DNA of 62,921 bases, counting the filler, from Candidatus Woesearchaeota archaeon CG1_02_57_44 (GTDB taxonomy: Archaea > Nanobdellota > Nanobdellia > Woesearchaeales > CG1-02-57-44), in the NCBI GenBank assembly GCA_001871415.1. It is 5 parts of 5 records of this genome, joined end to end, with 100 filler letters (N's around TTAATTAATTAA, not from the genome) between each part and the next. Parts side by side here need not be neighbours in the genome. Positions count along the whole stretch, not along the records: positions 54,934 to 62,921 come from MNWW01000055.1; 4 more parts are not named here. One strand, 5' to 3'. Position numbers: made by a program. Position 1 is the first letter of the stretch, and each line of letters opens with the position of its first letter. Shown here in pieces: positions 57,001 to 62,921 of the stretch.

Positions 57001-60000
57001 CGGTATCCTGCCAAAGGTCGCTGCGCGTTCCAGCATGGCCCCTATCTGCTCGATTATCGTACGGCAGTTGTCCGCAGGCATCAGGCGCCCGGCATCCTGC
57101 TGTTCAAAGCCAAGATGCAGGTCGCCAAGTATAAGAGTGCCTTCCTTCTCCGGGAGCAGCAGTCCAGTTCCAAGGATGATGCTGCCATCAGCAAGCGTGT
57201 GGCAGATTCCTCTGGGTGGGTTATGTCGGGATGGGAATCTCATGAGGGAATCCTGCTGACGAAGCATCAGCCGTCTGCTGGAATGACGCGATCCACGTCG
57301 CATACGGTCTGCGTGGATCATGGCCAAAGCATGGCGGATGCCCGACACCTGGCGACAACAGGCCTATTTTTTCTTCAATATGCCCTGGAACCCTTGCAGG
57401 ATCTCCAGCGGCACCGCGAACACGACCGTGTTGCTCTGATCAGAGCTCATGTCATTGATGCTATTCAGGGTACGAAGGTGCAGTGCTCCGGGGCTGTCCG
57501 TGAGTAATCTGGCCGCCTTTGCGAGGTTCTGGGCCGCCAGCACTTCGCCCTCTGAATTGATGATGTTGGCGCGCTTCTCCCGCTCGGCCTCTGCCTGCTT
57601 GGCCATGGTCCGGACAAGCTCCTGTGAGAGGCCGATGTCTTTTATCTCCACTGCCTCGACATCAATGCCCCAGGGATCAGTCGCCTTATCGACGATGCTC
57701 TCTATCTTGTCAGAGTTCTTCTTGCGCTCGGCAAGCAGCTCATCCAGGGTCACTTCGCCGACGACATTTCTCATCGTGGTCTGCGCGAGCTGTGAGACCG
57801 CGTAGTTGTATTCCTCGACCTCAATAATGGCCTTCTCTGCAGAGCGTACCTTGTAGTACATGACTGCGTTCACCTTCACAGTAATGTTGTCTTTCGTGAT
57901 GGCATCCTGGTCAGGAACATCCGCGACCTTGGTGCGCATATCGACGCGCTGCCAGCTCTGGAAGACCGGCAGCACGACGCGAAGGCCCGGATCCATCATG
58001 CCGCTGTATTTTCCCAGCGTGAACCTGACACCACGCTCATACTGGTTGATGACCTTCAGGCCAGCGAAGATGTACAATGCGACGACCCATGCGATAGATG
58101 TCATAATTGCCATGATATCACCCCTCGGAAATGTTGCAAGTGTCTGCCCTTATATAGTTTTCCGGCAGGTGGCCCGGCATGCCCCCTGCCAGCCGCTAAT
58201 GCGTCAAGCATCACCAGTGTCTTGCCCATCTTCCCTATTCAGTTCCCGGCGTGCATAGACTCATCAATGTTATGGCCCGAAGCCCGCCTTGGTGTCTTCC
58301 TTGTTCAGTTCCCGGCCTGTTCAGTTCCCGGCCGTTGCCTTTATAAGCACTGCCAGATTTTCTCCTTGCCATGCGTATCTACTGCATCCCCTGGGATAAA
58401 GGGGGATTCGAGCGGACCATCGGCTGCGCCAAAGGGCCAGCTGCGATACTGGACGCCCTCAAGGACGTCTATGTCGGTGATTCGGGAAAGCCGTTGCTCA
58501 TCGAACCCGTCCAGGTGCCTATAGACCCAAGCGACTGGAACAAGAGCGCGAAGGCCATGCATCAGGCTGTCGCGTCGCATCAGGGCCTCGCGATATCGCT
58601 CGGTGGCGATCATAGTGTCACCCATCACTTGATCACAGGCCTTCTGGCAAGAGAGCCCGGTGCAGGCCTGCTCATGCTGGACGCGCACGCGGACTGTCTT
58701 GATGGCACAAGCCTGCCGACTCATGAAGACTTTATTCCGCAGCTGGTGCGCCAAGGTGGCCTTCCGGCTGAGCGTATCATCCTTTTCGGGCTTCGGAATA
58801 TTCACCCGCAGGAGCAGGCGTTCCTCAATGAGCACAAGATAGACTGCTATGGCATGCGCCGCATCCTCGACCTTGGCTTTGACGAGGCAGTGTCAGCCGT
58901 CATGCAGAAAGCGAGGCAGTGGTCTGCCCTCTACGTTTCCGTGGACATCGATGTCGCCGACCCGAGCTGCGCTCCAGGGACAGGATACCTTGAGCCTGGC
59001 GGCCTGTCAGCGCAAGAGCTCATACACACCTGCCGCAGGATATCCCGCCTGCAGAACCTGCGCGCTATCGATGTGGTCGAAGTCAATCCCGCGCGCGACA
59101 GCAATGGAATGACCGCTGCGCTTGGCGCAAGGGTCATCAGGGCGTTTCTCTGAAGCAACGGTCTGCGACCAAGCAAGCGTTGTGGCTGCTGGATGCTCAT
59201 GCGCACCTGCTTGCTCATTAGTGCCTGCTGCCTGTCCTGTTGCTCTACGCCAAGATGGCGCGCACGCTGCGTTCAGAGCAACGCGACAAGCGTCGCAGGA
59301 CCGGCATGTTCAGAAGCTCTTTGCCTTACCCATCGCAGAATCCAGTACCGCTGTTCAGAATCAATAGGTTCCTATCCTTTCCACTTTATCCCATCCACTC
59401 TGTCTTCAATTCCAGTAACCGCCCCCTGCTGATAGCGTCGCGTATCTCGCTCATCAGTCCAAGGATGACCGTCAGATTATGGATGCTGGCGAGCCGGTAG
59501 TAGAGCAATTCCTTGCTCATGAACAGGTGTCGCAGGAAGCCCATGCTGTGCCTGCAGCACTGGCAGCCGCAGTGGCTGTCCAGCGGCTGTGTTGATGCCT
59601 TCCATCTGGCCAGCTTCACGCTCGTCCTGAATTTGTTGCGTGGTGTGCCGCCCGCCCGGGGATGCAGCAGCAGATGTCCGCTCCGGGCGATGCGCGTGGG
59701 CATGACGCAGTCGAACGTGTCGATGCCGCGCGAGACGCTCCAGAAGATATCCTCCACCGTGCCGATGCCCAGCAGGTGGCGCGGCAGCTCATCAGGCACA
59801 AGCGGGATAGTCCAGTCCAGCACCGCGAGCATGTCCTGTTTGCTCTTGCCCAGAGAGCCACCGATGGCGATGCCGTCAAAGCCAGGAGGGACGCACATTG
59901 TCCCTGCGCCGCCACTGCATCCTTCCTCTTTCATTCCTTTTCCTTTCAGTGCATCTGTCGCAATTCCGTTCTGTGTGCGCATCCCCACAATCGCCTTCGC

Positions 60001-62921
60001 GCTCTCCCGGCGCAAATCCTCGTACGCGCCGCCCTGGACAATACCATAGAGTCCCTGCCCATCAGGAGCCAAGCCGGAGGCGAGCGCCTGGTGATGCGCG
60101 TCAAGACACTGCTGCGCCCAGCGGTGCGTGCGGCGCATGGCCGTCGCGGTATAGTCTTTGTCTGACAGGGGGCTGGTGCATTCATCAAAGGCCAGTATCA
60201 GGTCAGCGCCCAGCGTGTGCTGGATGCGCATGCTCTCCTCTGGCGTGAGCAGGACCCATCTGCCATCGAATGGGCTGCGGAACCTGACTCCTTCTTCGGT
60301 GACGCGCGCGAGCTTTGGCTCTGGTCGCTTGCGCTGTGGGCCGGGGGGTAGCACGATGGTGTGTGTTTGGTCGCCTCCATCTGCTCTGTGTGCCTCTCCT
60401 TCGTCTCCTCCTGCTTTCCCCTGTTCCCTGCGTTCGCCCGTCACTTCATCCGGGAAGATGCTCGCAATCTTGCCGACACCGTGCTCCATGCCAAAGCCCA
60501 GAGAGAATGCCTGGAATCCACCAGAGTCAGTCATGAACGGTCTGTGCCACGAGGAGAACCCGTGCAGGCCACCGTGCGCGCCGACCAACTGCTCGCCTAT
60601 CTTCAGATGCAGATGGAAGGTGTTGGCCATGAGTATCTGCGCGTGCAGCGCTTCCATGTCGTCCATGCCAAGGGCCTTGACCGCGCCGGCTGTCGCGACA
60701 GGCATGAAGGCAGGTGTCTGTATGTCACCGTGGGCGGTGCTGATGCTGCCCACGCGAGCAGAGCCGTCCTTCGCAGTGATGGAGAAGTCCATGCTCAGGA
60801 CCTCTCCATGTCATGGGCAGTGGTCACCAGCGCGACCGCGAGGGGCTGGGTGTCTTGCAACCCATACAGGGAGGTGCCGACATCATAGAGCCGCTCCTGT
60901 ATCCGGGCGTGATCAAGCTTTGCTTGGCCATAGGCGCACTGCAGGGCGACAGATGCGATGTGCGCTGCGGCATCCGTGGAGTAGGGAGGCGTGTTGCGCA
61001 GGAGAAAGAACTCGGTCGCGGCGTACGCGCGCCCGATAGCGAGGTCATCAGGAGAGAGAACGAGCGCGTGATAGAAGTGATACGATGCGTGGTCATATTC
61101 CTGACAATGGGTATGCAAGGTTGCGGCAAGCGCGTGCATGCCGCCGATGTATCCGAACATGCTAAGACCTTCCTGCGCAGCGACGAGACCATGGTCGTAC
61201 GCTTCCATTCCCGCATAGGACCGGGCCAATAATGAGTGGCCCTCTGGCGTGCGCATGGCGCGAAGCGAGAGCGCGGCGCACACCCTGGCAAGGCCGTAGA
61301 ATTCCTCATCCTCGAATCCTTCACCAGCCAGGCATTGGTATTGCGCGAACAGGATGCTGCCCGTGGAGGTCAGGTCATGCTCCCCGACAAGCGTTCCTGT
61401 ACTGAGGTGTATCCTGTCAAAGAGCGGCACAGCCTCATAGTGCTCATTGGCGAGCGCCTGCGAACGCAGCTCTCGCTGCTTATCCCAGAACATCAAGCTG
61501 CCAGGTATTCTCACCGTGTCAGCGAGCATGGTCGCCTGAATTTCCCAGGCGCTTATATAATCTGCTGCTCAGAAATCATCAGGGAACTCCGATACTGCAT
61601 GCAGAATCAAAGCGTCCGCCAGGGCCGGTGTGCCCTCCTGCAGCGCCTCGCCCTGCGCATAGCAGCGCTGGGCGATCTCCTTCTTGGGGGTGCCTGAAGG
61701 GTGCGCCTGAGGGGTGTGTCTAAGGAGTGTGCCTAAGAGGTGCGCCTGAGGGGTGTGTCTAAGGAGTGTGCCTAAGAGGTGTGCCTGAAGGGTGTGCCTA
61801 AGAGGTGTGTCTAAGGAGTGTGCCTGAAGGGTGTGCCTAAGAGGTGTGTCTAANNNNNNNNNNNNNAAGAGGTGTGTCTAAGGAGTGTGCCTGAAGGGTG
61901 TGCCTGAGGGGTGTGACAACGGAGTCTGACAGCGCAAAGACATAAAAGCGCAGGATTGCTTGCGTGCTCCATGAGCAAACCTGATACTGCCGCGAAAAAA
62001 AACCTGACAGAGGACGCGACCCTGCAGGAGCCACCGCAGCAGCGCGCCCTCCTGCTGCTCTCCGGTGGCTTTGACAGCACTGTCGCAGGGAATCGGCTGG
62101 TGCAGCTGGGCTGGCAGGTGGACGCCCTGCACTTCTCTGGAGAGCCCGTGGTGCCGGATATCTCAGCGAGGGTGGCTGAGCTTGCGAGGCATATCCCTGC
62201 CAGCAGGATGTGGGTCGCGACCCTGGGTCCTGCGCAGGCAAAGATTGTCGAGCGCTGCTTTCGCAGGTTCTATTACGTCATCCTTCGGCGCCTGATGATG
62301 CGCATCGCAGCAGGGCTGGCCCGGCGCGAAAGCATCAGCGCTCTGGCGACAGGGGATAACCTTGGGCAGGTCGGCAGCCAGACTGTGGAGAACATGTTCT
62401 GCATCGACGAGGCAGCGGCGTCGGCCGGCGTGCGTGTGCTGCGCCCGGTCCTGTCATGGGACAAAGTGGATATCATCAGGCAGGCGCAGCGGATAGGCAC
62501 CTATGAGCTCTCGTCAGCGCCAGAGATGTGCAATGCGTTGGGACCTAAGGACCCGAAGACACGCTCGCGTCTTGACAAGGTGCTGCGTGAGGAGGCGCGC
62601 CTGGACATGGACGCGCTGGTCGCGGGCGCCCTGGAGGCGATGCGGGCGCAGGGTTTGGCCGCGCCATCACACTGAACCCTGCTGTCTGTTCCTTCCGGTT
62701 GTCTGTGTCTATGTCGCTATGCGGTACTCTGGGCGGCATAGGTGCATTGGCGTTGCCGAGCGCTCATGACCGTCGGATGACGGTCCAGGGATCATGGTAG
62801 CCCATGGCGCAAGGCGATTGGTTGATGTCCTGCGCGACAAGGCCGATGCGCGGGAGAACGTTGTCAAGGAAGTGCGGCCCGGTGAGCAGCAGGGCGCCGT
62901 CTGGTGGCATGGTGCTGGTGA

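Follow-up and report, generated by a model that had tools for sequence, protein, structure and literature searches.

Probable salvage of bacterial queuine by a short-loop tRNA-guanine transglycosylase in a woesearchaeal archaeon

The tgt gene (g00109) of Candidatus Woesearchaeota archaeon CG1_02_57_44 raises the question of which base its product would place in tRNA and where that base would come from. Reviews describe Q34 in bacteria and eukaryotes, not in archaea (PMC8879553), and Q genes in DPANN archaea have already been published (Castelle et al. 2021, PMC8204110). The genome-wide survey's note had read the gene as part of a QueA-independent salvage of queuine by TGT and the transporter YhhQ. 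This reading is now better backed (by a profile of 301 genomes, by the clade into which YhhQ falls and by the pairing of qng1 with tgt in a relative), while its structural basis, a V233G-type pocket, is not established. The features of the gene are given in Table 1, with positions counted along the window, i.e., the whole stretch of 62,921 nucleotides that was analysed.

Table 1. Position of tgt and of the main features of its product in the window.
Feature	Position	Strand	Basis or remark
tgt (g00109), bacterial-type tRNA-guanine(34) transglycosylase, short-loop (GGSLG) subfamily	59386..60792	-	468 aa
TDSGG motif, catalytic Asp89 (= Asp102 of Z. mobilis)	60517..60531	-	alignment
Subfamily-specific insertion after TDSGG loop, residues 100-114	60451..60495	-	alignment, model
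D203-E204-C205 (= base-binding Asp156/Cys158)	60178..60186	-	alignment
Second insertion, ~residues 271-303, low model confidence	59884..59982	-	lacking in PDB TGTs compared
Pocket loop G311-G312-S313-L314-G315	59848..59862	-	one residue shorter than GGLAVG
DTFDC motif, nucleophile Asp361 (= Asp280)	59707..59721	-	alignment
Zinc ligands Cys408, Cys410, Cys413, His438	59479..59571	-	alignment

The open reading frame is intact (468 codons without an internal stop) and its product scores 425.3 bits against the bacterial TGT family TIGR00430 (cut-off 306.75), in agreement with the identification first proposed, including the GGSLG motif at residues 311-315. By contrast, it stays far under the cut-offs of archaeal TGT (TIGR00432: 98.6 bits, cut-off 350) and DpdA (NF041059: 18.9 bits, cut-off 200); PF01702 is the sole domain match and the C-terminal PUA region is absent. 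According to the AlphaFold model (mean pLDDT 84.6; target-normalised TM 0.92 to Z. mobilis TGT) and a fold search, the TGT fold is ordinary, with a low-confidence stretch that follows residues 100-114 and extends up to about residue 148. Positions D102, D156, Q203, G230 and D280 are matched by D89, D203, Q253, G312 and D361, respectively, the Cys3His zinc site is complete, and Phe93 occupies the Tyr106 position in the alignment to Z. mobilis TGT. This conservation of all catalytic and zinc residues is consistent with a working salvage enzyme. Furthermore, Lys52, Asp267, Thr285, Arg286 and Arg289 align with the residues which we take to be the anticodon-loop contacts of TGT.

Regarding the pocket, the survey's note had placed Gly at the Val233 position, a reading that depends on where a one-residue gap is put. 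The HMMER alignment to the wild-type TGTs of Z. mobilis and E. coli gives GG-SLG, i.e., Leu314 at Val233 and Gly315 at Gly234, and among the BLOSUM62 scores of the four loop registers (29, 26, 24 and 15) that of the V233G register is the worst. Besides, V233G alone does not enable queuine insertion by Z. mobilis TGT, and the V233G/C158V mutagenesis did not answer which features permit queuine turnover by a TGT (PMC3660597); V233G as a structural explanation is thus unproven. The equivalents of Asp156 and Cys158 are both conserved, as in canonical preQ1-inserting enzymes, and Cys158 tips the E. coli enzyme towards preQ1 (PMC3074131). Both the conserved Cys and the low-scoring register speak against salvage. 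On the other hand, a passage in PMC11570991, correctly quoted by the survey's note, states that TGTs salvaging q "typically contain GG[LS][AS]G"; GGSLG differs from this printed pattern at the fourth letter, whereas Fig. S1 of the same paper shows GGSLG as a roomy type, exactly the loop of the TGT-only Anaplasma enzyme, which lies 4.0 A from queuine in a model, not an assay.

As for the remaining Q genes, the YhhQ/QPTR gene (g00639) was confirmed at C39:1900-2580, on a contig other than that of tgt (226 aa; PF02592, E 1e-53). The assembly has 77 contigs, a completeness of 82.15% and a contamination of 0.1%. In this 82%-complete genome, QueA and QueH gave no match, even by tblastn with archaeal QueA and QueH ORFs, as had been noted before; QueG, QueF and archaeal TGT were likewise not found. 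The QueC matches were short and far below cut-off; with QueF not found either, de novo preQ0 synthesis was rejected for this genome. Neither Qng1 nor an IU-nucleoside hydrolase was found in the genome, hence a Q-releasing hydrolase was rejected as well. It carries a single TGT-family gene, without the second subunit of the eukaryotic type. Genes for tRNA-His(GTG) and tRNA-Asn(GTT) are present, both with U33-G34-U35; tRNA-Asp and tRNA-Tyr gave no match at default thresholds, and the matches at relaxed thresholds are not credible.

In the order Woesearchaeales, TGT (PF01702) was found in 212 of 301 genomes, so that the 20 of 81 reported by the earlier survey was far too low. Four pocket classes can be distinguished, among them (i) class A, with a GG[SAP][LM]G loop (44 genomes); (ii) class D, with a bulky pocket (148 genomes); and (iii) the related short-loop class GG[AS]FG (13 genomes). 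Almost every QueA-positive genome has a TGT (69/70). QueA is present in 1/44 class-A genomes (G165) versus 67/167 genomes with other readable TGTs (Fisher p 1e-7) or, counted by family, in 1/26 versus 43/80 (p 2e-6), p-values that are overstated since the class-A genomes essentially share a single lineage of TGT. The exclusion, previously non-significant (p=0.37), is therefore strong once all classes are read, and the former count of 19 QueA-positive genomes among the remaining 63 most likely reflects TGT classes missed there. QueH was detected in 1/44 class-A genomes, as a weak and divergent match. Two families (f8, f23) and one genus (g23) contain class A without QueA and QueH and class D with both. 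Most TGT genomes of the order (143/212) have no QueA, which is thus the prevailing condition, QueA being missing in 94/148 class-D genomes and present in 10/13 of the GG[AS]FG class.

YhhQ accompanies class A in 37/44 genomes versus 47/167 of those with other readable TGTs; it was also matched in 12 of the 89 genomes in which no TGT was found. The yhhQ gene adjoins tgt in 25/44 class-A genomes. A tgt(GGSLG)-yhhQ module, adjoining or not, occurs in ~15% of Woesearchaeales, and Methanothrix and Aenigmarchaeota have close homologues. The other recurrent neighbours of class-A tgt are a translin-like gene, AspRS and a small membrane protein (all three named from sequence reading, not from family matches), and no conserved gene of unknown function was seen next to it. 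QueC did not exceed its cut-off in any of 80 genomes, all 44 of class A among them; in consequence, the base used in class-A genomes must be imported. In the YhhQ tree, the protein of this genome falls inside a clade (98/96) of 26 rows, drawn from 23 class-A genomes plus one genome without a TGT found and from no class-D genome; the two proteins are thus co-inherited.

Further evidence comes from Qng1, which releases queuine, not preQ1 (PMC9881137). In one woesearchaeal genome (G133), the only one of the 44 class-A genomes with Qng1, qng1 lies directly upstream of the GGSLG tgt on the same strand, and at a Chloroflexia locus it lies ~0.9 kb upstream of a GGSLG tgt. Among 17 bacteria with GG[SN]LG, Qng1 was found in nine and QueA over cut-off in none (a QueA-like sub-cut-off match is present in 7/9 of the Qng1-positive ones), whereas Qng1 was found in none of seven long-loop, QueA-positive bacteria. 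Full QueA is present in 2/13 GGCLG and 1/4 GGEFG bacteria, which, together with the QueA-bearing GG[AS]FG class, indicates that a short loop alone is not diagnostic of queuine use. A quick tree nested GG[AS]FG inside class A; after the loop columns had been taken out, an AU test did not reject class A as a single clade (p 0.65), so no reversion is claimed. Since the place of the present TGT inside the clade varies between trees, no donor is named.

Taken together, direct queuine salvage by TGT and YhhQ is the reading we favour, with somewhat better than even confidence. Besides Cys158 and the loop register, several observations weigh against it: QueA in part of the short-loop TGT genomes (GG[AS]FG, GGCLG, GGEFG) and in the class-A genome G165, the class-D genomes that do without QueA, the rarity of Qng1 in class A, the sub-cut-off QueA-like matches in Qng1-positive bacteria, and YhhQ in genomes with no TGT found. 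If tgt is expressed and its product active, YhhQ/QPTR would import free queuine from neighbouring bacteria, and TGT would excise G34 from tRNAs with a GUN anticodon, form the usual covalent intermediate at Asp361 and put queuine in its place in a single step. Shortening of the 231-233 loop may give space for the cyclopentenediol, and QueA and QueH would be dispensable under such one-step insertion.

Several known systems resemble this one. Chlamydia trachomatis shares TGT plus YhhQ, an altered loop and the lack of QueA, QueG, QueH and precursor synthesis, as far as the relevant parts of PMC11570991, PMC11130926 and PMC12301720 describe it; accordingly, the gene content of this 82%-complete genome (TGT and QPTR, with QueA, QueG, QueH, QueC and QueF not found) is of the Chlamydia type. 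Nevertheless, the host here is an archaeon, and Cys158 is kept (Cys205), as it is in 43/43 readable class-A proteins, while a passage in PMC12301720 says that chlamydial-type BL-TGTs carry Leu. Hence, the archaeal TGT would work like the Chlamydia type and is not classed as a member of it. The TGT-only enzyme of Anaplasmataceae, a family with hardly any Q gene besides tgt, shares the identical GGSLG (PMC11570991, Fig. S1D and Table S2); its queuine use is itself a model-based prediction, and the likeness noted is that of the loop. With the eukaryotic TGT (QTRT1/QTRT2) the archaeon would share, as proposed here, the one-step insertion of imported queuine, although the former has Gly233, Val158 and a required second subunit, and the latter a single gene whose product keeps Cys158 and has a deletion in the loop.

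The main rival is a truncated route of the Bartonella kind, in which YhhQ would import preQ1 (or preQ0) and TGT would insert it at G34 as the end product, queuine being at most a poor substrate. We consider it unlikely, though deserving of serious weight. According to the data given in PMC11570991, Bartonella henselae has the same gene content as this archaeon (bTGT plus QPTR), and both proteins prefer preQ1 in the absence of QueA; by this analogy, a pair of TGT and YhhQ may lead no further than preQ1, and gene content alone can mislead. The conserved Cys158, a possible Leu at 233, the lack of QueA in most class-D genomes as well and the GG[AS]FG class, which operates with QueA and QueH and so accepts preQ1, all point the same way. 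However, Bartonella keeps GGLAVG and has lost QueA only, class A almost never occurs with QueA across 26 families, and two GGSLG tgt genes adjoin the gene of the queuine-releasing Qng1.

Much less probable is that TGT inserts preQ1 and Q is completed by a non-orthologous enzyme or by a host cell, or that another 7-deazapurine is inserted: the frequency of TGT without QueA may indicate an enzyme not yet recognised, but the class-A neighbourhood offers no conserved candidate. It is very improbable that the enzyme acts on another target, either G15 (archaeosine) or DNA, or that the gene is inactive or a contaminant. Archaeal TGT was not found in the genome, and YhhQ of archaea has been interpreted as importing preQ0 for archaeosine (PMC5372724); against this stand the arcTGT and DpdA scores, the absent PUA region and the aligned anticodon-loop contacts, and, against contamination, the contig GC of 58.4% (genome range 50-61%), a neighbouring gene above the cut-off of the archaeal family TIGR00024 (SbcD_rel_arch) and the low contamination estimate. 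Finally, a canonical preQ1-to-Q route with queA and queH lost in assembly gaps is hardly credible, as QueA is missing in 42/43 other class-A genomes, most of them at least 90% complete, even if this assembly is fragmented and neither its genus nor its family has another genome in the comparison set.

With respect to earlier work, Castelle et al. 2021 (PMC8204110) list the TGT family, in Table S3, for 43% of the 196 genomes of Woesearchaeota covered; the sections concerned, which contain no pocket analysis, describe a pathway of QueA, QueH and Tgt in DPANN and Methanosarcinales, which shares with the present case the bacterial-type TGT and differs from it in the QueA/QueH route, neither gene being found here. 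The words "YhhQ" and "salvage" do not appear in its main text, queuine-salvage terms are absent from a complete-genome Nanobdellota preprint, and a literature search among papers outside subscription returned no report of a salvage-only queuine route in archaea.

Judging from its genome, then, this small uncultured archaeon probably imports ready-made bacterial queuine and builds it into its tRNAs. More tentatively, and with the odds somewhat against it, many archaea might owe queuosine at the wobble position to scavenging across domains. The tgt(GGSLG)-yhhQ module would then be transferable, would allow bacterial queuine to be imported as a vitamin, would bind it by a third structural route (loop deletion with Cys158 kept) and would have changed places with the QueA-linked class of TGT at one chromosomal site. 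In that case, whether an enzyme takes queuine or preQ1 would depend on the Leu/Phe difference between GGSLG and GG[AS]FG. The order offers four natural TGT classes, with QueA or lacking it, as a ready panel for the question of what makes queuine turnover by a TGT possible. If queuine salvage is the correct reading, archaea would be queuine consumers, reliant on bacterial neighbours for a tRNA micronutrient.

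In Candidatus Woesearchaeota archaeon CG1_02_57_44, only one gene of the TGT family is present, tgt, and the enzyme that it encodes is intact. On TIGR00430, the model for bacterial G34 TGT, its product scores 425 bits where 306.75 is the cut-off; profile scoring against the archaeal TGT and DpdA models gave values below both cut-offs. When aligned to Z. mobilis TGT, it retains D102, D156, C158, Q203, G230, D280 and all four zinc ligands; Tyr106 is replaced by Phe and Met260 by Leu, and there are two insertions, which are the sole low-confidence parts of an AlphaFold model built on a 60-row alignment (mean pLDDT 84.6). 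The best matches in a fold search with this model were nearly all Z. mobilis TGT. The GC content of the tgt contig is in keeping with the rest of the genome, and a neighbour of tgt exceeds the cut-off of TIGR00024 (SbcD_rel_arch). Nearby, an ORF that stops 2 bases before the tgt start found no match in Pfam or NCBIfam, and a ThiI-like ORF lies downstream of a tandem repeat.

Coordinates of the features discussed (C, contigs of the source genome; L, fetched loci)
Feature	Location	Strand	Remarks
tgt	window 59386-60792	-	single open frame, 468 aa
ORF	window 60795-61529	-	244 aa
Degenerate 13-bp tandem repeat	window 61686-61915		about 13 and 3.5 copies flanking N gap
ThiI-like ORF	window 61956-62675		
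YhhQ gene	C39:1900-2580		separate contig from tgt
tRNA-Asn gene (G000)	C14:190-264		adjacent tRNA-Ile at contig end
tRNA-Asn gene (G000)	C47:33-107		identical to preceding; adjacent tRNA-Ile at contig end
QueA gene (G165)	L356:812-1963		384 aa, with insertion
QueC-like gene and adjoining radical-SAM-like ORF (G290)	L360:5431-7157		QueC-like gene full-length, 133.6 bits, below cut-off

Regarding gene content, the genome-wide survey's note had reported a YhhQ gene and neither QueA nor QueH, and both observations hold: the transporter gene is present, and no QueA, QueH, QueG, QueF, Qng1 or IU-hydrolase was found in this 82% complete genome, in which QueC gave short, weak matches only. As for the tRNA targets, U33-G34-U35 is present in tRNA-His and tRNA-Asn; tRNA-Asp and tRNA-Tyr were not found in the same 82% complete assembly. 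The two identical tRNA-Asn genes represent either a duplication or an assembly repeat.

The same note had placed Gly at the Val233 position, a register that is doubtful. The pocket loop GGSLG (residues 311-315) lacks one residue relative to GGLAVG; HMMER sets the gap at Leu231, so that Leu314 corresponds to Val233, and yields the proposed register only against a V233G mutant, while BLOSUM62 ranks that register fourth of six. GGSLG occurs in 119 of the top 120 homologues, among them proteins named Methanothrix, Aenigmarchaeota, Nanoarchaeota and Woesearchaeota. The pattern printed for q-salvaging TGTs is GG[LS][AS]G, and Fig. S1 of the same paper models the GGSLG of Anaplasma with 4.0 A clearance to queuine (PMC11570991). 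V233G and C158V are described as enlarging the pocket, yet without queuine insertion (PMC3660597), and the cysteine at 158 as favouring preQ1 (PMC3074131). In chlamydial-type TGTs, position 233 is given as Gly and position 158 as Leu (PMC12301720), whereas the present enzyme keeps Cys158. Given this evidence and the doubt about the register, the motif is suggestive of queuine use, not diagnostic.

The order Woesearchaeales was sampled through 301 genomes (the source genome plus 300 at least 80% complete), of which 212 have TGT, 70 QueA, 101 YhhQ and 71 QueH; four YhhQ and two QueH matches below cut-off were dropped, and four QueA fragments that also fell short of it were retained. Pocket loops were read at every TGT locus (one genome was unreadable) and four classes can be differentiated: (i) class A, GG[SAP][LM]G, in 44 genomes of 26 families (QueA 1, QueH 1, weak, YhhQ 37); (ii) class B, GG[AS]FG, in 13 genomes (QueA 10, QueH 9, YhhQ 1; e.g., loci L104, L131, L233, L260); (iii) class C, GS[ILF]FG, in five genomes (QueA 3); and (iv) class D, the commonest TGT of the order, whose loop is long and bulky, which carries a DxFDS motif and which mostly lacks Cys158, in 148 genomes after removal of two atypical rows (QueA 54, YhhQ 46; e.g., L099 in G015, L102 in G022, L113 in G136). 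All five class-D TGTs tested pass TIGR00430, and classes A and D are together in one genome. QueA is rarer in class A than in the rest (p 1e-7 by genome, 2e-6 by family), although these values overstate the difference because related genomes are not independent samples and all of class A belongs to a single TGT lineage. Families f8 and f23 each contain class A without QueA or QueH and class D with both. Some genomes are marked unpublished (G104, G123, G168, G188, G190, G192, G275, G277, G288 and G343, the last used in the bacterial comparison only); without the archaeal ones, QueA is found in 1/40 class-A genomes versus 65/161 others, and YhhQ in 33/40 versus 46/161. G165 is the sole class-A genome with QueA, and QueH was not found in it. 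In another class-A genome, G290, the QueC-like gene adjoins a 327-aa radical-SAM-like ORF.

Co-inheritance of TGT and YhhQ is seen in class A. Of its 44 genomes, 25 have yhhQ within about 1.5 kb of tgt. The unlinked YhhQ of the source genome falls inside a 98/96 clade of 23 class-A genomes and one with no TGT found, in a tree of the 48 rows in fetched loci from about 127 matches. In QueA-positive class-D genomes yhhQ can group instead with queA and queH (e.g., G022, G033, G149), clusters which are undercounted, the flanks examined being narrow. In the TGT tree, with 35 class-D rows sampled, classes A and B group together in a clade with SH-aLRT 98, apart from class D, class B being either nested within class A or its sister; this clade also holds Methanothrix, Aenigmarchaeota, Chloroflexia (one) and Deinococcota proteins. 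At loci L087-L308, class-A and class-D tgt often adjoin Asp/Asn-tRNA-synthetase-like and translin-like genes, both as named from sequence, the latter in 11 class-A and 11 class-D genomes. These common neighbours suggest a tie to GUN tRNAs, and also that one class may have taken the place of the other at a shared site.

Qng1 frees queuine from Q-5'-monophosphate (PMC9881137). Among 80 archaeal genomes it scored strongly in two, with two further weak matches: in G133, qng1 is directly upstream of a GGSLG tgt, and in G015 (class D) it is unlinked to tgt. A comparison was made with 46 bacterial genomes of unestablished completeness. Among them, GG[SN]LG bacteria have Qng1 in 9/17 and full QueA in 0/17 (QueA-like matches below cut-off in 7/17); QueA occurs in 2/13 with GGCLG, 1/4 with GGEFG, 0/2 with GGSF, 0/3 with GGV[SA]VG (Qng1 in one) and 7/7 of the remaining long-loop bacteria. 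Seven bacteria (G301, G320, G327, G330, G334, G336, G339) combine a sub-cut-off QueA-like protein with Qng1 and a GGSLG TGT.

In earlier work, 34 archaea, with 12 DPANN among them, are already predicted to have QueA, QueH and Tgt (PMC8204110), and archaeal YhhQ is interpreted as a preQ0 importer (PMC5372724); searches of the literature, subscription papers apart, found no description of archaeal queuine salvage that bypasses QueA. The main rival explanation, which we consider rather unlikely, is that the end product would be preQ1 or preQ0, by analogy with Bartonella. It is favoured by the retained Cys158, by the association of the short-loop class B with QueA, and by the lack of QueA in many class-D genomes (94 of 148, among them G015, a genome in a single contig that carries Qng1). 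The most likely reading, put forward with some confidence, is that YhhQ would import queuine and TGT would swap it for G34 in one step; the integrity of the enzyme, the gene content, the co-inheritance and the tRNA targets are observed, and we infer queuine to be the substrate of this archaeal enzyme.
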